A DNA stretch of 64,000 nucleotides from contig CAMTYE010000009.1 of NCBI GenBank assembly GCA_947085935.1, positions 5,153 to 69,152 on the forward strand, in the 5' to 3' direction. The DNA is from an uncultured Actinomycetes bacterium. GTDB lineage: Bacteria; Actinomycetota; Coriobacteriia; Anaerosomatales; CAMTYE01. Below the pieces are notes generated by a model. It did no database searches. It saw only the letters and a list, made by a program, of their open reading frames with translations, and was not told the DNA's origin. Shown one piece after another: positions 38,100 through 64,000 of the stretch (the stretch's first letter is position 1; each line of letters begins with the position of its first letter). The position numbers and the translations under genes were made by a program.

Positions 38100-41000
38100 A
38101 TGACCGATATGGAATCCAGCGCCACGAAGACCCGGGTCCCGCGGTGGTCTCTCGCGCCCGTCGACGACGTTCAGGCCGCTGCTCTTGCCTCGGCCACAGG
38201 GCTTTCGCTTGTCGTCGCCCGGATCCTGTGCTCGAGGGGCGTATGTGACGAGCACGAGGCGACGCGCTTTCTGAGACCCGAGCTTGATCTCGAGTGGTCG
38301 AACCCCTCGCTGATACCGGGAATGGACGAGGCCGCCGCGCGGGTCGCTCAGGCGGTGCGTGACCACGAGCGGATACTCGTGTTCGGCGACTTCGATCTCG
38401 ACGGGATATCCTCAGCGGCGCTCGCTACCAGGGGTCTGAGGGCTCTGGGAGCCGATGTCTCGGCGATCGTGCCGAACCGGTTCGGCGAGGGATACGGCCT
38501 CAGCGACGCCGCGATTCGGCGCGCCCTCACGCTCCGACCACAGCTGCTGATCACCGTCGACTGCGGTGTCTCGAGTGCGGTCGAGGTCGAAGCGCTGCGA
38601 GCCGCCGGCGTCGATGTCGTCGTCACCGATCATCACGAGCCGGGCTCGCTCGTTCCGCGTGGGGTGCCGGTTGCGAACCCGAAGCTGGATGAAGGATGCG
38701 GATCGTGCGATCTCGCCGGCGCGGGCGTGGCGCTCAAGTTGATGCACGCTGTGGGCGACCGGGTCGGGCAGCCGGAGCTGTGGCGCGACCTCGTCGACCT
38801 GGCCATGCTCGGGACCGTCGCCGATATCGTTCCGTTGCGCGGCCAGAACCGTGCCCTTGTGGCAGCAGGCCTCGCGAGATCGCGTTCCAGCCCCCGTATC
38901 GGAATCGCGGCGCTTGCGTCGGTGGCCGGATCCGATATCGGCCAGATGAACTCGGACACCGTCGCGTTCGCGCTGGCACCCCGTCTCAATGCGGCGGGCC
39001 GTATGGCGGATCCCGCCGTCGCACTCGAGCTGCTGCTTACCGATGATCCGGGCCGTGCCGAGGAGTTGGCGCTCGGGCTGGATGAACAGAATCGCATTCG
39101 CCAGTCCGTCGAGCAGGACCTGAGCGAGGCGGCACTCGCTCTTGCGGAGCGAACCTACCGTCCGGGTGAACGCGCGCTCGTGCTCGCGGGCGAGGGCTGG
39201 CACGCAGGGGTCAAGGGCATCGTCGCCTCAAGGCTCACCGCGCTCTATGGCGTTCCGGCGGTGTTGTTCGCCATCGAAGACGGTGAAGCCGTCGGGTCGG
39301 GGCGGTCGGTCGGCGACGTCGATCTGCACGCGGCGGTAAGCGCGCTCTCGGACATGCTCACGCGTTACGGGGGACACGAAGCCGCTGTCGGAGTCACGCT
39401 TCCCGCTTCAGACGTGAACCTGTTCCGGACGCGCCTGCTCGATGAGCTCGATCGACTGCCCGCCGAGGCGTTCGTGTCTCGTCGCATGTGTGACGCGGAG
39501 ATCGAGCTGGAACATGTGAGCGTCGAGTTGGCGGCCGAACTCTCTGCGCTCGAGCCGTTCGGGCACGAGAACCCGCGGCCCCTGCTCTGCTCGCGCGCGG
39601 TCTTCATGAACGCCCGGCAGCGCGTCGGCAGAACCGCGAACCACCTGCGCTTCACCGCGTATGACGGCGTCGCGACCGTGCCGGCGATCGCGTTTCGTTG
39701 TCGGGACATCGAGCGCTTGGCCGAGTGCGATGCGGCGGTCGATCTCGCGTATGAGATCGTGGCCGACGAATGGCGCGGTCGTCGGAGGGTCCAGCTGCAG
39801 GTGCGCGAGTTCGACGAACGGGTCTCTTCGGCGCCGTATGCCCCGGCAGCCGAGCTGGTCGAGGATCTCTTCGCCCACGCCGATGAGATCCTGGCGCGCG
39901 AGGAGTACACCGGAATAGGCGAGGCGGAGTCGTTTCACACCAAACTCGCAGGTGTCACGTTCGAAGGCCGCCAGGAGGTGGTCGCCGCACTGACTCCGGG
40001 GCTTCCGCTGCGGCTCGACCGACAGCCGGAGAACCCTCATGACGCGAACGCGATCGCGCTCTTCGACCCGTATGGCCACCAGGTCGGCTTCTTCAACCGG
40101 CGTCTCGCCGCCGTGCTCGCCCCGGTTCTTGATTCCGGCGTGGAATACGACGTCGAGGTCGCCGATGTCACCGGTGGTGACGCGGGCAGGTCGCTCGGGT
40201 TGAACGTGCGGGTCGCGCGGCGGTCGGATACCGACGAGGAGTTGGTCGAGGAGTCACGCGCGCAGCGAAGGAGCGAACTGGCGGAGCTCCCCGCAGGGGA
40301 GCTTGGTGTGCAGCTCGCCACGTCGTTCATCGGCGATCGGCAGCTTCATGACGCACAGGTCCGCGCGTTGGAGGCGTTGGCCGCGGGGCGTCGCACGATG
40401 TGTGTCATGGCGACCGGGCGCGGCAAGTCGCTCATCTTTCACCTGCACGCGGCCCGGACAGCCATCCGGAGCAGGAAGGCCTCGGTGTTCGTGTTTCCGC
40501 TCCGGGCACTCGTGGCCGACCAGGCGTTCCATCTTGAGGAGGTGTACGCGGGAATCGGTCTGAACGCGTGCACCTTGACGGGCGAATCCGCGCCGACCCG
40601 GCGGGATGATGTGTTCGGGGCCCTGTCCGATGGCTCCCTGGATGTCGTGCTGACGACTCCCGAGTTCTTCGAGCATCATGCCGGCCGTTTTGCAGCCACC
40701 GGCCGCGTCGGCTTCGTCGTGGTGGACGAGGCGCATCATGTTGGAACCGCCCGCTCCGGTCACAGGCCGGCATACAGCCGGCTCGGGTCCGCGATCGACA
40801 TGCTGGGCTCACCCGACGTGCTGGCGGTCTCGGCGACCGTCGATCGGGACGTCGGCGAGGTGATACGCGGCACGCTCGGGATCACCGAGGTCATCGAGGA
40901 TCCGACAGTTCGAGAGAACCTCATCATCGAGGATCGCCGGGGGGTCTCGGGCAAGGACGACATCCTCTGCGCGCTCGCAGCGCGAGATGAGAAGGTGGTC

Positions 41001-41750
41001 GTCTATGTGAACTCGCGAGAGCAGTCGGTTCAGCTTGCGCGGATGCTCCGCAAACGGGTGCCCGCAGTTGCGCTCAGGACGGCCTTCTACAACGGCGGTC
41101 TCGGCAAGGCGGCTCGTCACGCGGTCGAGCGTGCGTTCCGAGTGGGGGATATCACCGTCATCATCGCGACCAGCGCGTTTGGCGAGGGAGTCAACATACC
41201 CGACATCCGCCACGTCGTCCTCTACCACCTTCCCTTCAACGACATCGAGTTCAACCAGATGAGCGGGCGCGCCGGACGCGATGGCGCGCCGTCCAGGATC
41301 CACCTTCTGTTCGGTCCGCGAGACGGGCGTGTCAACGAGATGGTGCTCGCCGCCGCTGCCCCTTCCCGCGACGACATGGCGGCCGTCTACGCGGTCCTCG
41401 CCAAAGAGCAGGCTGCGACCGACGGAGCCTTTGAGCTCACCAATGCCGAGATCGCCGATCGCGCGAGAACGGCTCGCAAGGGGTGTAGCGTCAATGAGCG
41501 CGGCGTGTCCACCGCTATCTCGGTCTTCCGGGAGCTCGACCTCGTGCACGGAGAAGGCTATGGTGCCTTCCGCAGGTTGACGGTCGCTGCCAGACCACAG
41601 GTCAAGGTCGAGCTGTCGGACTCGGTTCGATATGCCGAGGGCATCCTCGAGAAAGCGGAATTCGACGAGTTCCGCGAATGGGTCCTGTCTGCGACATCAG
41701 ACGAGTTGCTGGCGCGCTTCAATCGACCTATCCTTCCATCAACGCCCTGA
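38100..41750 (+). CDS. recJ: Single-ORF fusion of RecJ ssDNA exonuclease, a HIRAN domain and a RecQ-like SF2 helicase
   Basis: The N-terminal part of about 600 aa has DHH/DHHA1 motifs (ILVFGDFDLDGISS, ITVDCG, VVVTDHHEP, GGHEAAVG). HIRAN is at about 39933-40215 (KLAGVTFEGRQ...RLDRQPENPHDANAIALFDPYGHQVGFF). The helicase is at about 40340-41300 (MATGRGKSLIF, VVVDEAHHV, VSATV, QMSGRAGRDG). The frame is continuous with no stop. Confidence 0.9.
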   Translation: MTDMESSATKTRVPRWSLAPVDDVQAAALASATGLSLVVARILCSRGVCDEHEATRFLRPELDLEWSNPSLIPGMDEAAARVAQAVRDHERILVFGDFDLDGISSAALATRGLRALGADVSAIVPNRFGEGYGLSDAAIRRALTLRPQLLITVDCGVSSAVEVEALRAAGVDVVVTDHHEPGSLVPRGVPVANPKLDEGCGSCDLAGAGVALKLMHAVGDRVGQPELWRDLVDLAMLGTVADIVPLRGQNRALVAAGLARSRSSPRIGIAALASVAGSDIGQMNSDTVAFALAPRLNAAGRMADPAVALELLLTDDPGRAEELALGLDEQNRIRQSVEQDLSEAALALAERTYRPGERALVLAGEGWHAGVKGIVASRLTALYGVPAVLFAIEDGEAVGSGRSVGDVDLHAAVSALSDMLTRYGGHEAAVGVTLPASDVNLFRTRLLDELDRLPAEAFVSRRMCDAEIELEHVSVELAAELSALEPFGHENPRPLLCSRAVFMNARQRVGRTANHLRFTAYDGVATVPAIAFRCRDIERLAECDAAVDLAYEIVADEWRGRRRVQLQVREFDERVSSAPYAPAAELVEDLFAHADEILAREEYTGIGEAESFHTKLAGVTFEGRQEVVAALTPGLPLRLDRQPENPHDANAIALFDPYGHQVGFFNRRLAAVLAPVLDSGVEYDVEVADVTGGDAGRSLGLNVRVARRSDTDEELVEESRAQRRSELAELPAGELGVQLATSFIGDRQLHDAQVRALEALAAGRRTMCVMATGRGKSLIFHLHAARTAIRSRKASVFVFPLRALVADQAFHLEEVYAGIGLNACTLTGESAPTRRDDVFGALSDGSLDVVLTTPEFFEHHAGRFAATGRVGFVVVDEAHHVGTARSGHRPAYSRLGSAIDMLGSPDVLAVSATVDRDVGEVIRGTLGITEVIEDPTVRENLIIEDRRGVSGKDDILCALAARDEKVVVYVNSREQSVQLARMLRKRVPAVALRTAFYNGGLGKAARHAVERAFRVGDITVIIATSAFGEGVNIPDIRHVVLYHLPFNDIEFNQMSGRAGRDGAPSRIHLLFGPRDGRVNEMVLAAAAPSRDDMAAVYAVLAKEQAATDGAFELTNAEIADRARTARKGCSVNERGVSTAISVFRELDLVHGEGYGAFRRLTVAARPQVKVELSDSVRYAEGILEKAEFDEFREWVLSATSDELLARFNRPILPSTP

Positions 41751-41765
41751 GCAGGGAAGAGATAC

Positions 41766-43982
41766 GTGGTCGCCTCCATCAAGAACATCGAAGCTCGTAT
41801 CCTGGAGTACAACCCCGGTGCGGACCTGACAGGTCTCGAGGAAGCCTACGAGTTCGCTCGGGGCGCCCACGAGGGTCAGGATCGCAAGTCAGGAGAGCCG
41901 TTCCTCGCCCATCCCGTCGAGGTCTGTCTCATTCTCGCCCAGCTTCATATGGACACTGCCACTCTGCAGGCTGCGCTTCTGCACGACGTCGTCGAGGACA
42001 GCGCCGTGCCACTCGCCCAGATCCGCGAGCGGTTCGGTGACGAGGTCGCAGACCTCGTCGACGGCGTCACCAAACTCGGCAAGATCAAGTTCGCGAGTCT
42101 CGAGGAGACGCAGAGCCAGAACCTGCGCAAGATGCTCATGGCGATGGCGAAGGACATCCGCGTCATTCTCATCAAGCTCGCGGACCGCCTGCACAACATG
42201 CGCACCCTCGCTGCGCTGCCGCCGGAGCGAAGGCGCGACAAGGCCGTCGAGACGATGGAGATCTACGCTCCGCTCGCGCACCGCCTCGGTATGTCCAGCA
42301 TCAAGTGGGAACTCGAGGACCTCGCGTTCTACTACCTTGAACCCAAGAAGTTCCACCAGGTGCAGAAGATGGTGGCGGAAAGCAGAGAAGCCCGGGAGCG
42401 TTACCTGCGGCAGGTGATCGATCAGCTGCAGTCCGAGCTGGGTGCTCTTGGGATCACGGCGGATATCGGAGGCAGACCGAAGCACCTCTACAGCATCTAC
42501 CAGAAGATGTCGCGCAAGGGGAAGGACTTCAACGAGATCTACGACCTGATCGCGCTGCGCGTGATCGTCGATTCGGTGAAGGACGTCTACGGCGCCCTCG
42601 GCACCGTGCACTCGATCTGGAAGCCGATGCCCGGCCGCTTCAAAGACTACGTGGCGATGCCCAAGTTCAACATGTACCAGTCGCTCCACACCACTGTCAT
42701 CGGCCCGGCCGGCCGACCGCTCGAGATACAGATCCGCACCGAGGAGATGCACCGAACAGCCGAGTACGGTATCGCCGCCCACTGGCGCTACAAGGAGGGG
42801 GCGCGCGGTGACGAGTCGTTCGACGAGCGCCTCGCCTGGCTGCGCCAGATGCTCGAGTGGCAGACGGAGCTCAAGGATCCCCGTGAGTTCATGGAGGCCC
42901 TCAAGATCGACCTGTTTGAAGACGAGGTGTTCGTCTTCACGCCCAAGGGCGATGTCATGTCGCTCCGGCGCGGGTCGACACCCATCGATTTCGCATACGC
43001 CATCCACACAGAGGTGGGCCATCGTTGTGTTGGAGCCAAGGTGAACGGCGCGATCGTGTCCCTGGGCTACGAGCTGCAGATGGGCGACCGCATCGACATC
43101 CTCACGAACAAGAGCTCCAAGCCCAGCCGCGACTGGCTCAACATCGTCAAGACGAGCAGCGCCCGCTCCAAGATCCGGAACTACTTCTCGAAGGCGAACC
43201 GCGAGGACGACCTGCATCACGGCCGTGAGGAACTCGGCAAGGTCATGCGCAAACACGGGCTCGGGCTCTCCTCGAACGCGTCACAGAAGGCGCTCGACGC
43301 TGTGGCGTCCGAGATGAACTTCCAGACCGCCGAGGACCTGCTCGCACATATCGGTGCCGGCAAAGCCAGCGCCAAGCAGATCGCCGGCAAGCTGCTCAAG
43401 CACATGTCGGTCGAGGAACCGAAGCCTGCCGAGGAGCCGACGCTTCACGAGCTGCTGCCAACGCAGTCGATGCGAGCGCCTCGTTCCCGCCGTAAGCGTG
43501 CCGGCGGGGGAGTGTGCGTCAAGGGCATAGACGATGTGCTCGTGCGTCTCGCCCGGTGCTGCACGCCCGTGCCGGGGGACGACATCGTGGGATTCGTGAC
43601 GCGCGGTCGCGGGGTCTCGGTCCACCGCTCGGACTGCCCGAACGCCGGGGAGCTTCTCAGCCAGCCTGAACGGCTGATCGACGTGGAGTGGGATCGCGGA
43701 CAGGACTCGACCTACCAGGTCGAGATCGTGATCGAGGCAGTCGACCGCATGCGACTCCTGCAGGAGGTCACTTCCACCCTTGCCGAGGCCGGAGTGAACG
43801 TGTTGTCCGCGTCGGTCGCCACCTCCAAGGAGGGTATCTCGACCATGAGATTCCTCTTCGAACTCGGCAACATGGATCAGCTCAACTCGCTCCTGCGCGA
43901 GGTCAGGACCATCGACGGTGTCTTCGACGCGGAGCGCATGCTGCCCGGCGAGGCGGCCGCGCGCAAGAAGGGTCGCTCGTGA
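41766..43982 (+). CDS. relA: Bifunctional (p)ppGpp synthetase/hydrolase
   Basis: HD domain (HPVEV...LLHDVVEDS), synthetase domain (DLIALRVIV...YQSLHTTV), then TGS and C-terminal ACT regions. Confidence 0.95.
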   Translation: MVASIKNIEARILEYNPGADLTGLEEAYEFARGAHEGQDRKSGEPFLAHPVEVCLILAQLHMDTATLQAALLHDVVEDSAVPLAQIRERFGDEVADLVDGVTKLGKIKFASLEETQSQNLRKMLMAMAKDIRVILIKLADRLHNMRTLAALPPERRRDKAVETMEIYAPLAHRLGMSSIKWELEDLAFYYLEPKKFHQVQKMVAESREARERYLRQVIDQLQSELGALGITADIGGRPKHLYSIYQKMSRKGKDFNEIYDLIALRVIVDSVKDVYGALGTVHSIWKPMPGRFKDYVAMPKFNMYQSLHTTVIGPAGRPLEIQIRTEEMHRTAEYGIAAHWRYKEGARGDESFDERLAWLRQMLEWQTELKDPREFMEALKIDLFEDEVFVFTPKGDVMSLRRGSTPIDFAYAIHTEVGHRCVGAKVNGAIVSLGYELQMGDRIDILTNKSSKPSRDWLNIVKTSSARSKIRNYFSKANREDDLHHGREELGKVMRKHGLGLSSNASQKALDAVASEMNFQTAEDLLAHIGAGKASAKQIAGKLLKHMSVEEPKPAEEPTLHELLPTQSMRAPRSRRKRAGGGVCVKGIDDVLVRLARCCTPVPGDDIVGFVTRGRGVSVHRSDCPNAGELLSQPERLIDVEWDRGQDSTYQVEIVIEAVDRMRLLQEVTSTLAEAGVNVLSASVATSKEGISTMRFLFELGNMDQLNSLLREVRTIDGVFDAERMLPGEAAARKKGRS

Positions 43983-50847: not shown

Positions 50848-51622
50848 GCGAGCCGACAAGCAGTCCCGCAAACTGAGCTGGGACAAGAAGCGCACCAGAG
50901 AGCTCTTCGCGCAGTACAGGCTCGACGGCGATGATGCCGCGCGGGACGAACTCGTCACGATGTACCTCAATCTGGTGCGATATCTTGCGAGCCGGTTTCG
51001 CAACCGCGGTGAGGCGATCGACGACCTCATTCAGGTCGGCACGATCGGTCTGATCAAAGCCATCGACAGATTCGACACCGATCGGCAGGTCGAGTTCACG
51101 ACGTACGCGACACCCACGATCGTCGGTGAGCTCAAGCGCTACTTCCGCGATAAGGGGTGGGCGATCAAGGTCCCTCGCCGCTTGCAGGAGCTGTCGTTCA
51201 AAGTCAACCAGGCGATCGACGCGCTCACGCAGCGCCTGCAGCGGTCGCCGTCGGTTCCCGAGATCGCAGAGTACCTCGGAGTCACGCCGGAGGAGGTGCT
51301 CGAGGCGATGGAGACGAGCGAGGCCTACAACTTCGTCTCGCTTGAGGGTGACCGGGGCGGTGACGGCTCCGACAGCTTCTCGATCCTCGAGTACATCGGC
51401 AAGGACGACCAGCTCATGGCCGTCGTCGAGGACCGCGCTACGCTGTCGGCGGCGCTCAAGAAGCTCAGCCCCCAGGAGCAACGCGTACTCTACCTGCGGT
51501 TCTTCGAAGGGCTCACTCAGACCGAGATCGCGCGTCAGCTCGAGATCTCGCAGATGCAGGTCTCACGTCTGCTGCGACGCACGCTCAGGATCCTGCGGGA
51601 GAATATCGTCAGGGAGGTGTGA
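50834..51622 (+). CDS. SigB/SigF/SigG-family (group 3) RNA polymerase sigma factor
   Basis: DDLIQVGTIGLIKAIDRFD, YATPTIVGELKRYFRDKGWAIKVPRRLQE and LTQTEIARQLEISQMQVSRLLRR. Confidence 0.9.
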   Translation: MSTARRADKQSRKLSWDKKRTRELFAQYRLDGDDAARDELVTMYLNLVRYLASRFRNRGEAIDDLIQVGTIGLIKAIDRFDTDRQVEFTTYATPTIVGELKRYFRDKGWAIKVPRRLQELSFKVNQAIDALTQRLQRSPSVPEIAEYLGVTPEEVLEAMETSEAYNFVSLEGDRGGDGSDSFSILEYIGKDDQLMAVVEDRATLSAALKKLSPQEQRVLYLRFFEGLTQTEIARQLEISQMQVSRLLRRTLRILRENIVREV

Positions 51623-52836
51623 CCGTGGGGCCTGAGCGCAGGGAGCGGATCGCTCAAGCGGCCATAGCGGCCTGGGCGATCATCGGATGGGCGATCGTGT
51701 CGGCTGCGGTGTTCTTGCTGCTCGGCCGCGTCGCCAGTGCGTTGACCCCGTTCGTTCTCGGGGGCATCATCGTGCTCGTGTTCCGCTCTCCGGTGCGCAC
51801 CCTCGAGCAGCGGGGCATGGCCCGCTCTGCGGCCGTAGCCGTGTGCTACGTGGCCACTCTCGCAGTGCTCGCGGCGGTGGGCGCGTTCTTCGTTCCACCG
51901 CTCATCTCACAGATCGAGCAGTTCGCGCGCAATACGCCGGCCTACGCTCAGGCGGTCGAGACATGGTGGGCCGGCATGCAAGGGCGGGTCGAGACGGTGA
52001 TCCTACCCGCCTGGTTCGCCGATGCCCTGGGCCAGGTCGGCACGACCATCGGCGACGAGTTGGCGAAATGGGCGTCTGCCCTGGCCTCCGGCGTGATTAC
52101 CGCAGGCGGTGCGGCGGCCGGCCTACTCTTCAATCTGGTGCTCGCACTCGTGGTGGGGTTCTGGGCGCTCAAGGACCTGCCGAAGGTGCGAGCGGAGATA
52201 ATGGATCTCGTCTCGGCGCGCAAGCGCGAGGAGGCCGAGGTCGTCCTCGAGACGGTCATGCGGGTTCTGGGCGGGTACGTTCGTGGTCAGGCGATGGTCT
52301 CATTCACAACAGGTGTTCTCGCCGTGGTGGGCCTGACGATCGCCGGCGTGCCGTACTCCCTGGTTCTCGGCTTGATCACGGGCGTGTTCAACATCGTCCC
52401 CTACATCGGGCCCGCGCTCGCGGGCATCATGGCCGCTGCGGCCGGGTTGTTCATCTCGCCCCTCACCGCTCTGTTCGCGCTTCTCGCGGTGTTCGCGGCA
52501 CAGCAGCTCACTGACCTGTTCGTGACCCCGCGCGTCATGTCCGAACAGGTCGACCTGCATCCGCTCCTCGTGATATTCTCCGTGCTCGTCGGGAGCACGC
52601 TGTTTGGGTTCTGGGGGCTGCTGCTGGGTATTCCGGTGGCAGCCATCATCAAGGGGCTCTTCGTCTACTACTTCGAGAAGCACACCCTGCGGACGCTGGG
52701 CACTGAGAACGGTGCGCTGTTCCGTCGAAAGAGATGTCCGGAGCCCGGGCCGGACGGTGCCGTGACCGGTGACGATTGCGAACCCGACGCCGCGGCTGAG
52801 TCAGGTCATGAGACGACCCTGGAGGACCACGAGTGA
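51619..52836 (+). CDS. AI-2E family transporter (PerM-like)
   Basis: GTG overlaps the sigma stop. Eight TM segments. GVFNIVPYIGPALAG is typical of this family. Confidence 0.85.
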   Translation: MTVGPERRERIAQAAIAAWAIIGWAIVSAAVFLLLGRVASALTPFVLGGIIVLVFRSPVRTLEQRGMARSAAVAVCYVATLAVLAAVGAFFVPPLISQIEQFARNTPAYAQAVETWWAGMQGRVETVILPAWFADALGQVGTTIGDELAKWASALASGVITAGGAAAGLLFNLVLALVVGFWALKDLPKVRAEIMDLVSARKREEAEVVLETVMRVLGGYVRGQAMVSFTTGVLAVVGLTIAGVPYSLVLGLITGVFNIVPYIGPALAGIMAAAAGLFISPLTALFALLAVFAAQQLTDLFVTPRVMSEQVDLHPLLVIFSVLVGSTLFGFWGLLLGIPVAAIIKGLFVYYFEKHTLRTLGTENGALFRRKRCPEPGPDGAVTGDDCEPDAAAESGHETTLEDHE

Positions 52837-55902: not shown

Positions 55903-56984
55903 ATGAGATTGCTTCTCCCGCACCGCGCCGACACGGACGTAGGCGTCGCAGGGGCGCGCGGGTTCTCGGCATACTACTACTGTTGTTCGTGCTCGTCGTG
56001 GGCGCTCTCGGCGTCGCGGCGTGGACGATGTTCTACACGCCCGCGACCGATGTCCCGTCCGGATCGGGTGTACGAGTTGAGATCGTCTCAGGGATGACGA
56101 CAGCTGTGATCGGCGAAGAACTGGCATCTCGGGGAGTTGTCGATAACGCGAACATGTTCCGGCTCAAGACGCGGCTCGCGGGCGAAGACAGCGCACTGGA
56201 AGCCGGGTCCTACGACCTGATCACGGGCATGGAGTACGAGGATGTCATCGCCACGCTACGGCGCGGTCCGCAGATCACCTACGTCAAACTGACGATTCCC
56301 GAGGGCTGGACCATCGACAGGATCGCTGAACGGATCGAGGCCGAACTCGGCATTCCCGCAGGAGAATTCGCGAGTCTCGCGAAGGGCGGTGCCTCGCAGT
56401 TCGAGTCTGAACACCCCTACCTCGCGGGCGCGTACGACGGCTCACTGGAGGGGTACCTCTTCCCGAAGACCTACGAGATCGTCGAGGGGGCATCGGCGGC
56501 CGATGTGATCGAGGTGATGCTCGCGCAGTTCGAGACCGAGATAGCCGGTGTGGATCTCGCGTATGCCGCTTCGCGCAACCTCACTCCCGCGGACGTCGTG
56601 ATCATCGCCTCGATCGTCGAGCGTGAAGCCAAGCTCGCCAGTGAACGCCCGCTCGTCGCGTCAGTCGTGTACAACCGCCTCAAGAAGGGCATGCGGCTGG
56701 AGATGTGCGCGACCGTCGAGTACGTCCTTCCCGGTGGCCGTCTGCGCCTGACGAACGCTGATCTGCAGATTGACAGCCCCTACAACACGTACCGCAACAC
56801 CGGTCTGACGCCGGGACCGATCTCGAACCCGGGACTCGCCTCCCTGCAGGCTGCGGCGGCTCCGGCCGATACACAATACCTGTTCTACGTGCTCACCGGC
56901 GAGGACGGCTCGCACACGTTCACGAACACATATGCCGAGTTCCAGCAGGCGAAGAAGAGGTCCAAAGAGGTGTTGGGACAGTAG
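55899..56984 (+). CDS. mltG: Endolytic murein transglycosylase MltG (YceG-like)
   Basis: GTG overlaps the ruvX stop. N-terminal TM. Signatures TIPEGWTIDRIAERI, ASIVEREA and DSPYNTYRNTGLTPGPISNPG. Confidence 0.9.
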   Translation: MNEIASPAPRRHGRRRRRGARVLGILLLLFVLVVGALGVAAWTMFYTPATDVPSGSGVRVEIVSGMTTAVIGEELASRGVVDNANMFRLKTRLAGEDSALEAGSYDLITGMEYEDVIATLRRGPQITYVKLTIPEGWTIDRIAERIEAELGIPAGEFASLAKGGASQFESEHPYLAGAYDGSLEGYLFPKTYEIVEGASAADVIEVMLAQFETEIAGVDLAYAASRNLTPADVVIIASIVEREAKLASERPLVASVVYNRLKKGMRLEMCATVEYVLPGGRLRLTNADLQIDSPYNTYRNTGLTPGPISNPGLASLQAAAAPADTQYLFYVLTGEDGSHTFTNTYAEFQQAKKRSKEVLGQ

Positions 56985-57022
56985 GCCCGATGCCATGAGG
57001 CGCGGGACTGACAGACACGGAG

Positions 57023-57517
57023 ATGATGTTGCTTTCACCTGATCACTACTACACGGACGTCCACGCCATAGATCTCGACTCACTTGCCGCGCGCGGCATC
57101 GACACGCTGCTCATGGACCTCGACAACACGCTACTTCCTCGTGATTCGAACGTTGTCCCGGAGGACCTGAAGGAGTGGACCCGCGAGATCAAGCGACGTG
57201 GCTTCAAGGCCTGTCTGGTTTCCAATAACTGGCACGAGCGCGTCAGGGCGGTCGCCGAGGAGCTCGATATCGACCTGGTCGCGAAGGCGATCAAGCCGCT
57301 GCCGTTCGCGTTCCTGAGAGCCCTTGGCAAGCTCGGCTCGAGCCGAACGAACGCGGCAGTGATCGGCGACCAGATCTTCACTGACATACTGGGCGGCAAT
57401 CTGCTGAGCATGACCAGCATATTGGTCGCGCCACTGTCGGGCACCGACCTGCCCCACACACTCTTCCTGCGACGCATCGAGCGCATGGTGCTGGCGGGCC
57501 GGAGTCCCCTGCCGTAG
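57023..57517 (+). CDS. yqeG: YqeG-family HAD-IIIA phosphatase
   Basis: GIDTLLMDLDNTLLPRD, LVSNN and AVIGDQIFTDILGGN. Confidence 0.85.
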   Translation: MMLLSPDHYYTDVHAIDLDSLAARGIDTLLMDLDNTLLPRDSNVVPEDLKEWTREIKRRGFKACLVSNNWHERVRAVAEELDIDLVAKAIKPLPFAFLRALGKLGSSRTNAAVIGDQIFTDILGGNLLSMTSILVAPLSGTDLPHTLFLRRIERMVLAGRSPLP

Positions 57518-57537: not shown

Positions 57538-58452
57538 GTGATCGGAGTGCGAGTGGGCTTGCGAATCAACGGACGCACGCGACTTGCCGGTATCATCGGC
57601 AATCCAATCACACATACCCTGTCTCCCGCGATGCACAACGCCGCCTATGAGGCGCTCGGATTGGACTGGGTCTACGTTCCGTTGCCACTTGAGGACGAGA
57701 CGGATCTCATGCGCTTCATGGGTGCCGCCCGCGTGCTTCCGTTCGTGGGCTTCAACGTGACCATGCCGTTCAAGCAGGCCATGCTCACGATGTGCGATGA
57801 AGTGGCCATGCTGGCCACCATGGCCGGGGCTGTGAACACCGTGCACTGCGTCGACGGCAGGTTCATCGGCTACAACACGGATGCGCGTGGCCTCGTCGAG
57901 GCGCTTCAGGCCGAGGTGGGGTTCAGCTCGGAGGGACGCGACATCGTCATCATCGGCGCCGGTGGCGCTGCCGGTGCCGCTGCGGTCGGCTTCATGCTCG
58001 GCCGCGCGAACCGAATCACGATCGCCAATCGTAGTCTCGAGCGGGCCGAGGAGCTCTACGGGCGCCTTGCCCCGCATGTACGCACGACCGAAGTCGCAGT
58101 CGTGTCGCTCTCAGACGCAGAGGAGGCGATCTCCTCGGCGGCCGCTGTTATCAACGCGACACCGGTCGGCATGACGCCATCGGAGCCGTCGCCCGTACCC
58201 ACCGCATGGCTCAGGCCCGGTCAGGTCGTATGCGACATGCTCTACGGCCCGCACCGGACTCAGCTGCTCGTCGATGCTGAATCCGCGGGGGCGACCGCCG
58301 TCAGCGGCCTTGGAATGCTCGTTGCCCAGGGTGCGCTTGCGGTCGACATCTGGAGCGAGTCCGCGCAGACCCGCGCGCCCCGCGATGTGATGCACGCTGC
58401 GGCGGTGGATGCTCTGCGAGGCGTCCAGGCAGGGGAGGCTGCGCCGGCGTGA
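57538..58452 (+). CDS. aroE: Shikimate dehydrogenase
   Basis: GIIGNPITHTLSPAMHNAA, NVTMPFK, NTD.RG and IIGAGGAAGA. Confidence 0.9.
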   Translation: MIGVRVGLRINGRTRLAGIIGNPITHTLSPAMHNAAYEALGLDWVYVPLPLEDETDLMRFMGAARVLPFVGFNVTMPFKQAMLTMCDEVAMLATMAGAVNTVHCVDGRFIGYNTDARGLVEALQAEVGFSSEGRDIVIIGAGGAAGAAAVGFMLGRANRITIANRSLERAEELYGRLAPHVRTTEVAVVSLSDAEEAISSAAAVINATPVGMTPSEPSPVPTAWLRPGQVVCDMLYGPHRTQLLVDAESAGATAVSGLGMLVAQGALAVDIWSESAQTRAPRDVMHAAAVDALRGVQAGEAAPA

Positions 58453-60119
58453 GCGTCGCGACCGCAAAGCGGCTCGGCCGTGTGCTCGTCCAGTCCGGCC
58501 TGGTCACCGAAGCACAGCTCTCCGAGGCGCTCGCACTCGAGGGCGTAGCTTCGCTGCCGGCGGCCCTGGCGCGCCTCGGATACGCCGACGACGTGAAGGT
58601 AGCGCAGGTCGTGGCCGATGCCATGGGCCTCGTCTATGTCGACCTCGGGGCCTACGACATCGACGCGCACGCCGCGACGATGCTGTCGTCGGAACTCGCC
58701 AGGCGCTACACCGTTCTTCCGGTCAAGATCCAAGACGGCGAACTGGTCGTCGCGATGTCCGACCCGGCCAACATCTTCGCGATCGACGACCTTCGAATCG
58801 TCACAGGATTCGAGATCAGACCCGTTGTCGCCGCCGAGAGCGATCTGCTTGCGTCCATCGATCGCTACGGAGCATCGCAGCAGAACGTTGATGACATGGT
58901 CGGCGACCTTGAGGGCTCCGTCGCGGTCGGCGAGGACTCCGAGGAGGACCTCGAGGACACCTCCGCGCCCGTGGCCAAGCTCATGAACATGATCATCACC
59001 GAGGCCATCAGACAAGGTGCCGGCGACATCTATATCGAACCGCACGAGACCGAGATGAGGGTACGGTACCGCATCGACGGTGTGTGCCAGGAGGTCTTCC
59101 GCAGCCCCAAGAAGATGCACCGTCAGTTGATCAGCCGCCTGAAGATCTCGGCGGGCATGGATATCGCCGAGCGACGCGTGCCGCAAGACGGGCGGTTCGG
59201 CGTCGTTCTTGAAGGCAAGTCGGTCGATTTCCGCGTCGCGGTCTTGCCGGTCGTCACCGGAGAAATGGCGGTCTTGCGGTTGCTGCGCAAGGACTCGATC
59301 ATGATGTCGCTGCGCGACCTCGGGTTCTTGGATCAGCCTCTCGAGCGATTGATGGGTGCGCTCAAATTGCCGTACGGTGCGATTCTCGTCACCGGTCCGA
59401 CCGGGTCGGGAAAATCGACTACCCTCTACGCCGCCATAAATGAGACCAACGACCCGCGGATCAACCTCATCACCGTGGAGGATCCGGTCGAATACAGGCT
59501 TGCGGGCCTGTCGCAGGTCCAGGTGCACGAGAAGGCGGGACTCACCTTCGCGGCAGCGCTCCGCTCCATTCTGCGCCAGGATCCTGACACGGTGATGATC
59601 GGTGAGATTCGCGACAAGGAGACCGGGACGATCGCGATCGAAGCGGCGCTCACGGGTCACCTCGTGCTGTCCACGCTACACACGAACGACGCTCCGTCCG
59701 CGGTCACGCGGCTGACAGAGATGGGAATCGAGCCGTTCCTGTCCGCATCCGCGATCACCTGCGTACTCGCTCAGCGTCTCGCACGACGGCTCTGCCCTGA
59801 CTGCAAAGAGGAGTACGTGCCCGAAGAGAGCGCGCTCGAGCGCGTCGGCTTTCCCTACCAGCCGGGCACGCCGATAAGGGTATTCAGGTCGCGCGGCTGC
59901 AAGCGCTGCAATGGGATCGGATACAAGGGTCGGATGGGCGTGCATGAGGTACTCACCTTCTCGGAGACCCTCGAACGCCTGACGGTCGAGAACGCATCCG
60001 GCGACGAACTGAAGCGTCAGGCGATAGCGGAGGGCATGAAGACCCTGCGCGACGACGGGTTCGCGAAGGTCGCCATGGGCTTGACCTCCATCGAGGAGAT
60101 CCTCCGCGTCGTCGTGTGA
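58449..60119 (+). CDS. pilB: GspE/PilB-family type IV pilus or type II secretion assembly ATPase
   Basis: GTG overlaps the aroE stop. The N-terminal T2SSE_N-type region includes RLGRVLVQSGLVTEAQLSEALALE. Walker A GPTGSGKSTTLYA. Also IMIGEIRD, and the tetracysteine motif CPDCK...CKRCNGIGYKGR. Confidence 0.9.
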   Translation: MSVATAKRLGRVLVQSGLVTEAQLSEALALEGVASLPAALARLGYADDVKVAQVVADAMGLVYVDLGAYDIDAHAATMLSSELARRYTVLPVKIQDGELVVAMSDPANIFAIDDLRIVTGFEIRPVVAAESDLLASIDRYGASQQNVDDMVGDLEGSVAVGEDSEEDLEDTSAPVAKLMNMIITEAIRQGAGDIYIEPHETEMRVRYRIDGVCQEVFRSPKKMHRQLISRLKISAGMDIAERRVPQDGRFGVVLEGKSVDFRVAVLPVVTGEMAVLRLLRKDSIMMSLRDLGFLDQPLERLMGALKLPYGAILVTGPTGSGKSTTLYAAINETNDPRINLITVEDPVEYRLAGLSQVQVHEKAGLTFAAALRSILRQDPDTVMIGEIRDKETGTIAIEAALTGHLVLSTLHTNDAPSAVTRLTEMGIEPFLSASAITCVLAQRLARRLCPDCKEEYVPEESALERVGFPYQPGTPIRVFRSRGCKRCNGIGYKGRMGVHEVLTFSETLERLTVENASGDELKRQAIAEGMKTLRDDGFAKVAMGLTSIEEILRVVV

Positions 60120-60272
60120 CCCTCACGTTCCGACCGGGCGAAAAGCCGCAGGTCGCGGTTGTTTCGCTGGTGCCTTCGTGAGAGACTAAGGGTGCTCGCC
60201 GCATAGCGGTGGCTTCTTCTCGCACGTTCGGGAAGCATACGCGCCGGCTGCCTCCCGGGAGGTGTCAACTAC

Positions 60273-60881
60273 ATGGCTGACAACGGGATCGGCGATTACT
60301 TCATCAGTGATGCCGAAGACGAATTCCTCGATGACGACGAGCCTATCGCGGTCCCTGTGGTGGTTCCTGTCGTCACGACTGCCGCGCCTGCGGTGGCGCA
60401 GCCACCGATCCCGACGATCCCGGCGCAGCTGCCCCGGCAGGAAGAGACCATTCCTCCGGTGCCACAGGTGGAATGGGACACGGCTCCGCCTCCCGCAGCT
60501 ACCGTCAGGCCGCCGACGCGGGAAGAACAGCTCGCCGGGACGCTTGATTACCTCATGGAGAACTCGACGGACGTTCAGGCCGCTGCGCTGGTGAGCATGG
60601 ATGGCTTCACGATGGCGTCGGCACTGCCCGACGGCATGCAAGAAGACCGGGTCGGTGCCATGTCGGCTGCGATTCTCGGCTTGGGTGAGCGGGCGGCCAC
60701 GGAACTCGGTCGAGGGCAGCTGACTCAGGTCTTCATTGAAGGCGACGACGGCTACGTCGTGCTCATCGCAGCCGGCGATCGAGCCGTGCTGACCGCGCTT
60801 GCCCATGCCGACTCTAAGCTCGGTCTGGTTCTGTACGACATGAAGGCCTGTGCCGAAACGATCGCCGACATCCTCAGGTAG
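60273..60881 (+). CDS. Roadblock/LC7 (MglB/CvnB-like) protein with an acidic, Pro-rich N-terminal extension
   Basis: GGGAGG RBS. The C-terminal 115 aa match the Roadblock pattern (VQAAALVSMDGFTMASAL...AAILGLGERAATELGRGQLTQVFIEGDDGYVVLIAAGDRAVL). Confidence 0.8.
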   Translation: MADNGIGDYFISDAEDEFLDDDEPIAVPVVVPVVTTAAPAVAQPPIPTIPAQLPRQEETIPPVPQVEWDTAPPPAATVRPPTREEQLAGTLDYLMENSTDVQAAALVSMDGFTMASALPDGMQEDRVGAMSAAILGLGERAATELGRGQLTQVFIEGDDGYVVLIAAGDRAVLTALAHADSKLGLVLYDMKACAETIADILR

Positions 60882-60927
60882 ACACCGGATGCGGCGGCTC
60901 CAAAGAAGAAGGGTGCGAAGGTAGCCG

Positions 60928-62925
60928 ATGGCGCTTCGTGGCAACCTCAAGGACTTCAGTCTTCCGGACGTCTTCCAGCTGGTCACGTTCAGCAAGAAGA
61001 CAGGCGTGTTGCGGATCAGGCGGCTCGATGGCTCGGACGGAAGCGTCTGGTTCCGTGACGGGGAGGTCTTCTTCGCGCAATCGAATTGGCGCGGAGAGCC
61101 CCTTGGGGAACGCCTTGTCCATGCCGGCAAGGTCACTCCGAGCGCACTGTCGCGCGCTCTGGAGATCCGCTCCGTCGAGGGCGACTCCGGGCGTCGTCTC
61201 GGTGAGATCCTCGTTGACGAAGGCTACATCACGGCGAAGGTGCTTGAGGCGTTCGTCCAGGAGCAGATCCAGGACACCATCTTCGACCTGATGCGGTGGG
61301 ATGAAGGCGGTTTCGATTTCGAGCTGCTCCCGGAAGTTGTGAGCGAGGATATCGGCCTCTCGATATCGATCGAGAACGTCATCATGGAGGGTTCGCGGCG
61401 CCTTGAGGAGTGGGCACGCATCAAGAAGAAGATCCCCTCCATGGAGATCGTGTTCAAGATGGCCACGGCGCCGGGGGAGGGGACATTCGAGATCTCTCTC
61501 AAGCCCATCGAGTGGAACCTGTTGCTGCTCGTTGACGGCACCCGGAGCGTCGCCGAGCTCGCGCTGGAGACCGCTAGGACCGACTTTGAAGTCAGCCGCA
61601 TCATGTATGGCCTGTTCTCCGCGGGACTCCTGGAGGTCGCGCCTGACGATGAGGTAGCCAGACTTCGTTCCGAGCGCGCCGAACGTGAGGCCGTTCTCGC
61701 TGCGATTCGCGCCCGCGAGTCGGCGGAGCGCGCTGAGGCGGCCCCCGAAGTCGAGGAGCCCGGGAGCGAGCTCTCGGCCAACGCCTCAGCCGATGGCGAT
61801 GTGAACGCTGTATCCGATTCCGAACCCGAGATCGATCTTGAACCGGACTATTCCCTCGCTCCGCCATCTCCGCGGGAGCTGCGCGCCGAGCCCGAGATGC
61901 CGTCGTTCCTGGCGGACGAGACGGTGCCGGCGACCGCCGAGGACATGGACGTCTTCGAGCGCATGATGGGTGCTGTTCTCGAGCATCCCGTGGCCGCTGA
62001 ACCAGAGGCGCCGGTCGTCGAACCCGAGACCCAGGTCGTCGAACTCGAGCCGGCCGCCGAGGAGCCCGAGACGCTCGAGCGCCAACCGCTGTTCACCGAA
62101 TCCGATCAGGAGCCGACGACTGTGGAGGCCGACTCGGTCAGTAGTCTCGAGCGCGACCTGCTCGCGCTTGGTCTCGGTGAGCTTCCGAGCGAGGACCTGT
62201 TGTTGCCGGCGGAATCGACGGATGAAATAGCGCATCACGTCCCCCTCTTCGCGGACTCGGCGCCTGAGCTCGAGTTTGGAGTGACCGCGGAGACCGAGCC
62301 TGAGCAGCTGCCCGAACTCGAGGTCGAGTCCACCTCCGACGACGTCGCCGAGTCCGGGCCGGAGTTCGCGCCCGGCCAGGCTGTAGACCTCGATGCGCCC
62401 CTGGCGGGCGTGAGTGAGACCGACGACGACATGCCATTCGAGGAGTTCGGCGTCGGGACGATTCTCGGTGACCAGTCGGGAGCCGGGGTCATCCGGTTCG
62501 AATCCCCGGACATCGAGTTCACGCGTCCCGACGACGACGAGCCCGATGCGTCTTCCGGGCAGATCGAGCCCGGTCAGGTGGTTCCCGACTTCTCAGCTCT
62601 GCTGGAGTCCCTTGACTCGGGCTCGCTGGAGATCGTTCAGACGCACGACCTCGAGGACGACCTCGACGACGCGCCGACCACTCCCGGTGGCGTGATATCG
62701 ACCGATGCGTTCCTCGCCGATATCAACGGAGAGGATCTGGGGGGCGGGCTGTCCGGTGGGCTGGGGGCTGAGCTCTCTGCGCTGACAGGAGCGAAGGGTG
62801 CTCGCCGCCCCACGGCGAGCGTGAACAGGATCCCGGAACCGGGACAGGGCATCGAATTGCGGCTCGACCGTACCGTGGACAAGGACCTGGTACTGAAGAT
62901 CATCGAGGGAATACGGAACCTCTGA
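60928..62925 (+). CDS. DUF4388 (PATAN-like) domain protein with tandem GspE-N/MshEN-like motifs and a long acidic disordered region
   Basis: N-terminus LRGNLKDFSLPDVFQLVTFSKKTGVLRI...GEVFFA is typical of DUF4388. The motifs PLGERLVHAGKVTPSALSRALEIR and RLGEILVDEGYITAKVLEAFVQEQ are at 61099-61266. About 400 aa are rich in Asp, Glu and Pro. Confidence 0.8.
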   Translation: MALRGNLKDFSLPDVFQLVTFSKKTGVLRIRRLDGSDGSVWFRDGEVFFAQSNWRGEPLGERLVHAGKVTPSALSRALEIRSVEGDSGRRLGEILVDEGYITAKVLEAFVQEQIQDTIFDLMRWDEGGFDFELLPEVVSEDIGLSISIENVIMEGSRRLEEWARIKKKIPSMEIVFKMATAPGEGTFEISLKPIEWNLLLLVDGTRSVAELALETARTDFEVSRIMYGLFSAGLLEVAPDDEVARLRSERAEREAVLAAIRARESAERAEAAPEVEEPGSELSANASADGDVNAVSDSEPEIDLEPDYSLAPPSPRELRAEPEMPSFLADETVPATAEDMDVFERMMGAVLEHPVAAEPEAPVVEPETQVVELEPAAEEPETLERQPLFTESDQEPTTVEADSVSSLERDLLALGLGELPSEDLLLPAESTDEIAHHVPLFADSAPELEFGVTAETEPEQLPELEVESTSDDVAESGPEFAPGQAVDLDAPLAGVSETDDDMPFEEFGVGTILGDQSGAGVIRFESPDIEFTRPDDDEPDASSGQIEPGQVVPDFSALLESLDSGSLEIVQTHDLEDDLDDAPTTPGGVISTDAFLADINGEDLGGGLSGGLGAELSALTGAKGARRPTASVNRIPEPGQGIELRLDRTVDKDLVLKIIEGIRNL

Positions 62926-62944
62926 CGAAGGGTGTAGTCGCTAC

Positions 62945-63472
62945 ATGCAGTCTGTGAAGGTCGTTGTGACAGGCCCTTTCAATGCGGGCAAGACAACGTT
63001 CATCAAGGCAGTGAGCGAGATTACCGTCCTCTCGACGGAGCGTCAGGTCAGTGACGTTTCGGGGGAGGGTGGCGGCGAGACAACGGTCGCCATGGATTTC
63101 GGCCGCATCACTGTTTCAGATGACGTCGTCCTGTACGTCTTCGGCACTCCCGGTCAGGAGCGATTCTCGTTCATGTGGGAGACGTTGTCCGAAGGCATGC
63201 TCGGCTTCGTTCTCCTTGTGGACGCGATGGACCGGGACTCGTTCTCGGACGCCGCAGCCATGATCAAGTTCTTCACGCAGATGTCGGACGTGCCGTTCGT
63301 TGTCGCCGCAAACAAGGTGGACGCCGATGACGTCGATACGATCAGGGACGTTCGTACCATGCTCGGACTCGATGACAGTGTGCCGCTCCTGCCGGTTGAC
63401 GCTCGGGATAGGGACTCGGTGAAGGCGGTCCTCCTCGGCCTCCTTTACGAGATCCTGGATAGCATGGCATAG
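62945..63472 (+). CDS. Small Ras-like GTPase, CvnD/MglA-like
   Basis: P-loop GPFNAGKTTF, switch II FGTPGQERF, and the NKxD box AANKVD. Overall similar to the conservon CvnD type of ATP/GTP-binding protein. Confidence 0.85.
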   Translation: MQSVKVVVTGPFNAGKTTFIKAVSEITVLSTERQVSDVSGEGGGETTVAMDFGRITVSDDVVLYVFGTPGQERFSFMWETLSEGMLGFVLLVDAMDRDSFSDAAAMIKFFTQMSDVPFVVAANKVDADDVDTIRDVRTMLGLDDSVPLLPVDARDRDSVKAVLLGLLYEILDSMA

Positions 63473-63475
63473 CGA

Positions 63476-64000
63476 ATGGACACTCGGCTGATGATCCTGG
63501 CCGGCTCGTTCGTACTCGTGGTGCTGTCCCTCATCGTGCTCCTCGTGGTCATGACGCGCGCCAGGCGCGAGTTCCCGTTCGGTGAGCCGCACCAGGCCGC
63601 GCAGGCCGAGTGGCCGATGCTCGGGCCGGCACCCCGCGAAGTCGTTGCGGCGCACGGTGCCGACCGGACTTTTGCGGAACCTACGTCCGGCATGGCGGTG
63701 ATTCTGAATCAGCCGCTACGCACCGGCTCGTGGAGACCTGACCAGGGGTCTGCATCGTTGATCGATGCGACGACGGACTACTGGGACGGTCTGATCGACG
63801 ATCCGGCACTTCTGGTCCGCTCCAGCCTCCCGGCGCGCGAGCATGTCTCGTCCGGGCCGCCTGCGGACGTGCGGGCGCCCGAATCACAGGTGGATACCGA
63901 TGGCGCTCAACCGCTGTCGGTGACGCTGGCGCCTGCGGTTCCGGTGCGAGATGCGGCCGTTGTCGAATCGAGCGACGGACCTCCTGCCGAGGACTGGCTC
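63476..64000 (+). CDS. Membrane-anchored protein, 3'-truncated by the window edge
   Basis: ATG at 63476, 4 nt after the GTPase stop. My manual translation gives MDTRLMILAGSFVLVVLSLIVLLVVMTRARR... and stays open to position 64000. It is absent from the ORF track because no stop falls in the window. The tail is Pro/Ala-rich. Confidence 0.5.
   Translation, partial: MDTRLMILAGSFVLVVLSLIVLLVVMTRARREFPFGEPHQAAQAEWPMLGPAPREVVAAHGADRTFAEPTSGMAVILNQPLRTGSWRPDQGSASLIDATTDYWDGLIDDPALLVRSSLPAREHVSSGPPADVRAPESQVDTDGAQPLSVTLAPAVPVRDAAVVESSDGPPAEDWL

Follow-up and report, generated by a model that had tools for sequence, protein, structure and literature searches.

What does a small Ras-like GTPase do when it is encoded, together with a Roadblock protein and a PATAN (DUF4388) protein, directly behind a pilus motor gene in an actinobacterial-type organism? 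The question is raised by a stretch of 64,000 nucleotides, hereafter called the window, from an uncultured Actinomycetes bacterium (Coriobacteriia, Anaerosomatales; contig CAMTYE010000009.1 of assembly GCA_947085935.1, positions 5,153 to 69,152 of the forward strand). A first-pass annotation, made from the letters alone, had read its last genes as a GTPase-based switch wired to a PilB-type ATPase. Comparison with related loci revealed that this Roadblock-PATAN-GTPase module sits between two pilB paralogues within a complete type IV pilus operon, and we hold with moderate confidence that the module regulates the pilus motor of a monoderm type IV pilus machine. The features on which this reading is built are the following, with positions counted in the window.

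57538 to 58452, plus strand: aroE, shikimate dehydrogenase (Shikimate_dh_N, 2.7e-25)
58449 to 60119, plus strand: PilB1, a PilB/GspE-type hexameric ATPase paralogue of 556 residues (T2SSE, 8e-135; MshEN, 1e-22, N-terminal)
60196 to 60212, plus strand: weak terminator-like hairpin in the pilB1-roadblock spacer (7 pairs, poor T tract)
60273 to 60881, plus strand: Roadblock/LC7 (MglB-like) protein of 202 residues (Robl_LC7, 4.6e-18, residues 89-177)
60928 to 62925, plus strand: PATAN/DUF4388 protein, putative adaptor, of 665 residues (PF14332, 6.4e-32, residues 4-163)
61099 to 61266, plus strand: two tandem MshE-type cyclic di-GMP (c-di-GMP) motifs in the alpha-clip of the PATAN protein (NF053729, 45.9 bits)
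62878 to 62922, plus strand: extreme C-terminal motif of the PATAN protein, DKDLVLKIIEGIRNL, from a comparison of C-termini
62945 to 63472, plus strand: small Ras-like GTPase, by its motifs of the MglA family, of 175 residues (ATP_bind_1, 9e-20; Ras, 8e-10)
63476 to 64000, plus strand: 5' part of the gene for a membrane-anchored protein, running past the window end (337 residues in the related contig L001)

All five genes named in the first-pass annotation, from the ATPase to the membrane protein, were confirmed on one strand at these coordinates with 3 nucleotides between the last two, and the assignments to PilB-type ATPase, Roadblock/LC7, DUF4388 and GTPase were borne out by family matches. 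The module is indeed appended to the conserved block given there as alaS-ruvX-mltG-aroE, which in full reads alaS-ruvX-mltG-HAD-aroE and of which aroE is the last gene. The aroE stop and the pilB1 start overlap by 4 nucleotides (a gap of -4), and the further gaps are 153 nucleotides between pilB1 and roadblock, 46 between roadblock and PATAN, 19 between PATAN and GTPase, and the 3 before the transmembrane (TM) protein gene. The hairpin in the long spacer could be a partial transcriptional boundary; terminator-like sites were found 6 times against 2.9 expected, about twice the number in shuffled sequence, which makes them weak evidence.

Inside the window itself PilB1 is the only gene of the pilus machine, and the remaining components were read from the relatives L001 and L087. 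L001 carries a GTPase that is 100%, a PilB1 that is 99% and an MltG that is 97% identical to those of the window, and because of this near-identity it comes from the same strain or a very close one. Downstream of the GTPase it continues with the TM protein, a second extension ATPase (PilB2, 557 residues), PilT, PilC, an N-methyl pilin and a prepilin peptidase (PilD, Peptidase_A24), followed by a protein of 494 residues with a pilin-like leader and then another pilin-like protein. A PilM_2 match is present in L087, and PilM lies about 10 kb downstream in the complete 2.5-Mb genome of a relative. The overall order is aroE-pilB1-roadblock-PATAN-GTPase-TM protein-pilB2-(pilT)-pilC-pilA-pilD-minor pilins-pilM, so that extension ATPase, platform protein, prepilin peptidase, pilins and PilM, the type IV pilus set, stand in one locus. 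The first-pass annotation had remarked that no pilC, pilT or pilM follows pilB; this is correct within the window, but does not stand as a feature of the locus, since the near-identical L001 carries on into pilus genes and their lack is an artefact of the window edge. The closest named homologues are metagenome-assembled genomes labelled Coriobacteriia or Anaerosomatales. The 494-residue protein downstream of pilD (L001 17186-18670, leader G/MSVLE) is probably a large minor pilin or adhesin. Across the 20.5-kb locus of L001, with the module and some 10 kb of pilus genes in it, Rfam gave no match at E up to 0.1 and hence no riboswitch.

Related loci were mapped by tblastn, and the denominators given here are loci with enough flanking sequence. 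The loci are contigs and not independent species, and the counts overstate the number of independent events. The close Coriobacteriia relatives came from the metagenome scan; the genome-collection scan did not list them. Grouped by GTPase identity, the neighbours were found as follows.

GTPase at least 65% identical (41 loci): PATAN upstream 22/22, Roadblock upstream 12/12, PilB1 upstream 12/12, PilB downstream 15/15, PilC downstream 12/12, PilT downstream 5/12
GTPase 50-62% identical (76 loci): PATAN upstream 60/60, Roadblock upstream 13/37, PilB1 upstream 0/32, PilB downstream 15/42, PilC downstream 8/30, PilT downstream 9/30
GTPase less than 50% identical (46 loci, mostly conservons): PATAN upstream 2/46, Roadblock upstream 24/44, PilB1 upstream 0/40, PilB downstream 0/45, PilC downstream 0/41, PilT downstream 0/41

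The gene arrangement is not a matter of chance, because all close relatives whose sequence reaches far enough show it again. The co-occurrence of Roadblock, DUF4388 and GTPase beside pilB thus held wherever it was testable in close relatives, and synteny, through the PilB genes downstream in the two upper groups, backs the link to a type IV filament motor that had been proposed from the window alone. Three layouts make up the 50-62% group. The Actinomycetota-type layout reads mltG-aroE-Roadblock-PATAN-GTPase-PilB-PilT-PilC-pilin and has one PilB only. A variant seen in L008 (5183-9985) and L150 (5067-10000) has three tandem Roadblock paralogues and a PATAN protein of 1130 residues, with the module upstream of aroE and not downstream. 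The Anaerolineae layout consists of PATAN-GTPase, sometimes followed by Roadblock. The PATAN-GTPase pair is therefore the invariant core, placement of the module in a pilus operon is typical of several Actinomycetota lineages, and the Coriobacteriia have elaborated on it with PilB1, the TM anchor and the long linkers.

Some details of these neighbourhoods may be added. In one Anaerolineae locus (L023 6652-17500) the genes that flank the pair encode a GAF-GAF-GGDEF cyclase, an alpha/beta hydrolase, a REC-GGDEF protein (REC, receiver domain) and a very large multi-GAF protein, and GGDEF-type flanks were present in about 9-11 of 28 Anaerolineae loci. Such flanks suggest a c-di-GMP connection even without the Arg of the RLG motif in the PATAN insertion. 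Among the close relatives pilT is absent between pilB2 and pilC in 7 of the 12 testable loci and present in L001; the Coriobacteriia-type loci in this comparison were L087, L091, L094, L095, L096, L100, L101, L106, L110 and L121.

The GTPase has the intact P-loop, switch II and NKxD box that had been noted from its sequence. G1 is GPFNAGKT at residues 10-17, in agreement with the P-loop pattern GxxxxGK[ST], G2 is ETTVAMDF with TT and so no arginine finger, G3 is FGTPGQ at residues 66-71, and G4 is NKVD. Among 30 relatives G67 never varies and T68, P69 and G70 hardly do, and in an alignment of 11 sequences (A2) all of G67-Q71 are invariant. The AlphaFold model (predicted local distance difference test, pLDDT, 90.6) shows a standard small-GTPase fold with matches to Ras, Arf and MglA at E about 1e-10, where Ras, Rab and Arf matches score nearly the same and MglA structures take ranks 3, 5, 12, 16 and 17; a PDB sequence search with the GTPase had MglA outside the top 60. 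Wuichet and Sogaard-Andersen (2015, PMC4316618) described for the MglA family a Thr in place of the universal Asp in G3 (TxxGQ), for group 1 (MglA sensu stricto, SofG) an intrinsic arginine finger beside the G2 threonine, for groups 2-5 a Thr replacing this arginine finger together with GTPGQ, and for group 2 (conservon CvnD/MfpB) a G4 of NxFD and a CvnA-CvnB-CvnC-CvnD neighbourhood; group 5 was reported in Actinobacteria. Judged by these motifs, the GTPase belongs to the MglA family with the signature of groups 2-5 and is neither MglA proper nor CvnD, because of TT in G2, GTPGQ in G3 and NKVD in G4. It has Thr where group 1 has Arg, its G4 is not the NxFD of group 2, and neither the kinase nor the DUF742 protein of group 2 neighbourhoods was among the called genes up to 10 kb either side of the GTPase gene. 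With group 5 it agrees in the motifs shared by groups 2-5 and in the reported PATAN neighbourhood, a comparison of motifs and neighbours rather than of tree placement. Identity is 52-60% to PATAN-linked GTPases of Anaerolineae and Actinomycetota versus 44-49% to conservon GTPases. GTPase domains of the same family were also seen fused to TIR-HEAT, nSTAND1 (weak TIR match) and GAF (P0159, P0163, P0193, P0208, P0259, P0147 and P0228), and these proteins resemble defence or signalling proteins rather than motility regulators.

The pairing of this GTPase with a Roadblock protein, also proposed in the first-pass annotation, holds, as the module includes a clear Robl_LC7 protein beside an MglA-family GTPase. 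In this protein the Roadblock domain (residues 89-177), which is well conserved across all groups of loci, is preceded by a conserved acidic motif at the N-terminus and by a linker rich in Pro, both of them additions of the Coriobacteriia version. An Asp-Gly pair (VSMDGF), noted for the partners of groups 2-5 GTPases (PMC4316618), is kept in all aligned orthologues. The best solved relatives are unpublished Roadblock entries (7f8m, 1.6e-24), CvnB5 (3leq, 3e-8) and Rv3364c, and by sequence the protein is MglB/CvnB-like.

In the PATAN protein the core, into which an alpha-clip is inserted, and a winged helix behind it take up residues 1-245. Residues 246-600, about 350 in number and 26% Asp+Glu, make up a disordered acidic linker, and the C-terminal 420 residues as a whole comprise this linker and a short conserved helix. 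The PF14332 match spans residues 4-163 against a profile of 122 positions. A model of residues 1-242 (pLDDT 87) has a beta core that is interrupted by helices at 59-65, 71-84, 91-97 and 103-122, i.e. by two helix hairpins at residues 59-122. On these lie two tandem c-di-GMP motifs, residues 58-81 (PLGERLVHAGKVTPSALSRALEIR) and residues 90-113 (RLGEILVDEGYITAKVLEAFVQEQ), which exceed the NF053729 cut-off of 38 bits, and residues 57-139 align to the sequence of an MshEN crystal structure (5htl, E 6.6e-4). MshEN motifs bind c-di-GMP, and Wang et al. (2016, PMC5013675) gave for the two tandem 24-residue motifs the relaxed pattern [RKPN]hGxxhhxx[GAS]hhxxxxhxxxhxx[QNKRYWST]. Motif 2 fits this pattern exactly and motif 1 departs from it once; motif 1 begins with Pro, and one of its hydrophobic positions is taken by Lys. 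Across 57 homologues the residues of the motifs vary hardly or not at all, and the motif is present in Coriobacteriia PATAN proteins and in that of L008 (42.3 bits). The alpha-clip is therefore, on sequence grounds, a probable c-di-GMP sensor. The protein ends in ...LVLKIIEGIRNL, a candidate docking helix. The GTPase-linked PATAN proteins examined, drawn from the four phylum-level groups Coriobacteriia, other Actinomycetota, Anaerolineae and Caldisericum, all share this ending. No Response_reg match was found in the PATAN protein, which accordingly lacks the receiver of PatA-type regulators.

PilB1 has the Walker A sequence GPTGSGKST in an alignment with PilB2, and a regex search found Asp box, Walker B, His box and both CxxC pairs intact. 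It is 54% identical to PilB2 of L001 and forms its own clade, roughly equidistant (49-57%) from PilB2 and from the single PilB of Actinomycetota. The PilB model TIGR02538 is its best family match at 613.5 bits, with a cut-off of 675.65 bits that is likewise missed by PilB2 (649.7) and by an Actinomycetota PilB (671.6); ComGA (246 vs 300), the TadA family (59 vs 373) and GspE (586 vs 630 bits) are all below cut-off. The first-pass annotation had considered that the ATPase might come from a competence or Tad system, and the ComGA and TadA scores speak against this. In other Actinomycetota the module lies directly upstream of the sole pilB, and PilB1 is a lineage-specific addition. Its own c-di-GMP motif is weakened, with NF053729 at 27.5 bits in the window and 21.8, 37.4 and 47.4 bits in three other lineages, below cut-off in three of the four; PilB2 scores 55 bits and three single Actinomycetota PilBs 60-72 bits. 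A strict complementarity, in which the PATAN protein has the motif where the neighbouring PilB lacks it, was considered and holds only partly, as PilB1 of L088 is the copy with 47.4 bits and L008 has the motif both in its PATAN protein and in its PilB (61.3 bits).

A second linkage of PATAN with a PilB homologue occurs in the same clade. Two Anaerosomatales-type loci (L089 10001-20423 and L090 10001-20464) carry a chemosensory operon of the order PATAN-CheR(TPR)-CheY-PilB-like-CheW-CheW-MCP-CheA-CheB. Its PATAN paralogue has 248-250 residues and is 50-55% identical, and the L089 copy has the c-di-GMP motif (44.7 bits). The PilB-like protein, here PilB3 (612 residues in L089, 645 in L090), has no c-di-GMP motif at all, and in L089 it is catalytically dead, with Walker A changed from GPTGSGKST to APVASGASST, GEIRD changed to DGIRS and the His box lost. 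We take this second pairing as an independent hint of a link between PATAN and PilB proteins.

A single TM helix lies at the N-terminus of the TM protein. Basic residues come next, then a Pro/Glu-rich linker that varies, and at the C-terminal end a segment of about 35 residues (APVEMWFGDARVGVK.GS.TY) that is conserved in four relatives. The bulk of the protein is probably cytoplasmic, because the basic residues directly follow the single TM helix. Neither Pfam nor NCBIfam gave a family match. In the full gene product (L001 10532-11545) a Pro-rich unit, PVPEPVVPVPVPQPA, is repeated three to four times in tandem, and linker length among relatives ranges from 160 to 415 residues. The small open reading frames (ORFs) that follow the GTPase gene in other Actinomycetota were considered as homologues of the TM segment, and a hidden Markov model built from four Coriobacteriia sequences gave no significant match to them.

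If the module does regulate the pilus motor, the specific roles of its individual proteins are less certain than that regulation itself. The GTPase would cycle between GTP and GDP, with the Roadblock dimer acting as GTPase-activating protein (GAP) and/or guanine nucleotide exchange factor (GEF), as in MglA/MglB, where MglB-type Roadblock dimers regulate MglA GTPases (PMC4316618). The PATAN protein would be the effector or adaptor, whose core may contact the N-terminal region of a PilB and/or PilC. This is modelled on cyanobacterial PATAN regulators, since in Synechocystis the PATAN domain alone binds the N-terminal half of that organism's PilB1 as well as PilC's N-terminal domain and is sufficient for output (Han et al.). 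In Coriobacteriia the alpha-clip would read c-di-GMP and so modulate the PATAN protein, the conserved C-terminal helix might dock on the GTPase or on the Roadblock dimer, and the TM protein would keep the complex tethered to the membrane close to the pilus platform. As its output the module would set the time or place at which a PilB motor engages the platform, or the choice between PilB1 and PilB2, and would in this way control pilus extension. A bolder form of this idea, which we rate as unlikely, is that one Coriobacteriia platform is served by two PilB motors, between which the membrane-tethered GTPase/Roadblock pair chooses through the c-di-GMP-binding PATAN protein, and that PATAN alpha-clips more generally are trans-acting MshEN modules for PilB paralogues whose c-di-GMP site has decayed. 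It would be in line with this that the motif-weak PilB1 and the motif-less PilB3 are each encoded beside a motif-bearing PATAN protein.

Several observations weigh against motor regulation by the module, or against parts of it. The orthologous PATAN-GTPase pairs of Anaerolineae (GTPase identity 52-60%) have no pilus gene, neither PilB, PilT nor PilC, within 10 kb and are flanked by GGDEF, GAF and REC proteins instead, so that the core pair is not intrinsically tied to pilus loci. The c-di-GMP motif is absent from Actinomycetes-type pilus-linked PATAN proteins, and also from those of Anaerolineae; c-di-GMP input would, because of the former, be lineage-specific. The 153-nucleotide spacer with its weak hairpin sets pilB1 apart from the rest of the module, and the proposed mechanism as a whole is built on homology and gene context. 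Furthermore, none of ten longer GTPase-containing relatives joins PATAN or Roadblock to the GTPase as a Rosetta-stone fusion; all ten are of TIR-HEAT-GTPase, nSTAND1-GTPase, GAF-GTPase or HEAT-GTPase type. The Anaerolineae pairs, together with the 27 of 42 testable loci of the 50-62% group that have no PilB downstream, also speak for a different explanation, in which the module is a general switch of polarity, division or development that merely adjoins pilus genes at the conserved hotspot alaS-ruvX-mltG-aroE and does not have the motor as its direct target. PatA of Anabaena, which acts in heterocyst patterning and contacts division proteins, speaks for it as well. We nevertheless regard mere adjacency as improbable. 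The Coriobacteriia module is inserted between two pilB genes and not placed at the side of the cluster, the linkage holds in 15/15 and 12/12 testable loci and is found again, differently arranged, among other Actinomycetota, the same clade has a PATAN paralogue that once more adjoins a PilB-like gene, and the Synechocystis PATAN domain binds PilB1 and PilC.

It could also be argued that PilB1 and the module form a separate system related to type IV filaments, such as an ATPase for competence or secretion that has regulators of its own, and that this system abuts PilB2-PilT-PilC. PilB1 does stand as a distinct clade, roughly equally far from PilB2 and from the single Actinomycetota PilB, it occurs only in Coriobacteriia-type loci, and in 7 of 12 of these PilT is missing from the cluster. 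However, no second PilC, pilin or peptidase set lies beside PilB1, the module that other Actinomycetota have kept lacks PilB1 and stands directly upstream of the sole pilB, and the PilB model fits best where ComGA, TadA and GspE stay below cut-off, which makes a separate system very unlikely. The first-pass annotation had spoken of a conservon-like switch, and a true conservon, i.e. a CvnA-D type unit as in Streptomyces and Mycobacterium, might be expected from a Roadblock and GTPase pair in an Actinomycetota genome, from the Roadblock matches to CvnB5 and Rv3364c, and from the GTPase match to ATP_bind_1, as in CvnD proteins. At the level of gene content this is refuted and can hardly be upheld: neither in the five-gene cluster nor among the called genes 10 kb either side of the GTPase is there a histidine kinase or a DUF742 protein, which confirms the lack of CvnA-like kinase and CvnC already noted from the window. 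G4 is NKVD and not NxFD, and the conservon GTPases are only 44-49% identical, with no PATAN upstream in 44 of 46 such loci. The word conservon-like is hence only loosely apt; it fits the Roadblock/GTPase pair, but not the G4 box, the closer relationship to PATAN-linked GTPases or the missing CvnA and CvnC.

The favoured reading, control of the pilus motor by the Roadblock-PATAN-GTPase module, combines elements of several known systems. MglA/MglB of Myxococcus xanthus and Thermus thermophilus (group 1) share with it a small GTPase with TxxGQ, a partner gene of the Roadblock fold and a tie to type IV pili, which is functional there and comes from gene context here, and MglA is among the best fold matches. 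They differ in that the present GTPase has TT instead of RT, hence no arginine finger, and GTPGQ instead of TVPGQ, in that RomR/RomX, SgmX or FrzS partners were not seen here, and in that it is a monoderm organism that has the module here, within its pilus operon. Genes for MglA/MglB beside PATAN genes have been described before (Makarova et al. 2006; Wuichet and Sogaard-Andersen 2015, PMC4316618), and the reported neighbourhoods of MglA group 5 with PATAN have the same domain trio (MglA-like, MglB/Roadblock and PATAN) and the same groups 2-5 signature. There, however, it was an occasional neighbourhood without functional context, whereas here the trio lies between two pilB genes and comes with a TM anchor protein and a c-di-GMP motif in the PATAN protein. 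The PatA-type regulators PixG, PixE, LsiR and TaxP, cyanobacterial PATAN-REC proteins that bind PilB1 and PilC, have a PATAN domain with an alpha-clip insertion as well, and in them the PATAN domain alone is the output that binds extension ATPase and platform protein, a role which by likeness may apply here. Unlike them, the present protein has no REC domain, so that input would be by GTPase/Roadblock and c-di-GMP and not by phosphorylation, and it is extended by a winged helix, by some 350 residues of acidic linker and by a C-terminal helix that is conserved. With the MshEN domains of MshE and PilB ATPases (PMC5013675) it shares two tandem 24-residue motifs of the type RLGxxLVxxG... on helix hairpins, but the motif pair is inserted in a PATAN domain instead of standing at the N-terminus of an ATPase, and only the four-helix part is present. 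Conservons (CvnA-D, MfpB-D) are alike as Actinomycetota Roadblock and GTPase pairs of groups 2-5 without arginine finger, and unlike in their CvnA and CvnC(DUF742) genes and their NxFD box, in place of which the present locus has NKVD, a PATAN partner and a pilus context.

The first-pass annotation had called the combination undescribed, which is true in part. Han et al. proposed a role of PATAN in pilus-motor control, asked whether it is conserved and pointed out that the alpha-clip is similar to PilB N-termini, so that this role, like the MglA/MglB-PATAN neighbourhoods, is already published. For the trio inside an actinobacterial pilus operon, for the two PilB paralogues and the TM anchor around it, and for the C-terminal PATAN motif and the intact MshE-type motifs in these insertions we found no published description in a literature search that covered few subscription journals. 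We therefore consider the arrangement new, though specialists had already suspected that its parts are associated. Three strands that have been studied separately, namely MglA-type GTPases in Myxococcus, PATAN proteins in cyanobacteria and c-di-GMP binding by MshE/PilB, are encoded together here, in operon order, within the pilus cluster of a monoderm phylum. If the proposed regulation is true, the tie of MglA-like GTPases and PATAN to the pilus motor would be ancient and widespread and not a speciality of myxobacteria or cyanobacteria, and a function could be assigned to uncharacterised MglA-family GTPases without arginine finger. Four small proteins, soluble or tethered, together with PilB make up the system, and such compactness suits it to biochemical and structural reconstitution.

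Some minor observations concern the rest of the window and the genes upstream of aroE. Among filtered long non-overlapping ORFs of at least 90 residues, a regex search of the window found no GGDEF and two EAL..R strings. In some relatives three genes, for an ABC ATPase, an ABC-2 permease and an unknown protein, are inserted between mltG and the HAD phosphatase gene (L004 2123-4541, L087 1588-3957 and L088 1788-4179); the window (56984-57023) and L001 are without this insertion. Positions 1-52800 of the window were viewed as an ORF list only, which includes a multi-TM protein of 405 residues at 51619-52836 and large ORFs at 38100-41750 and 41766-43982.

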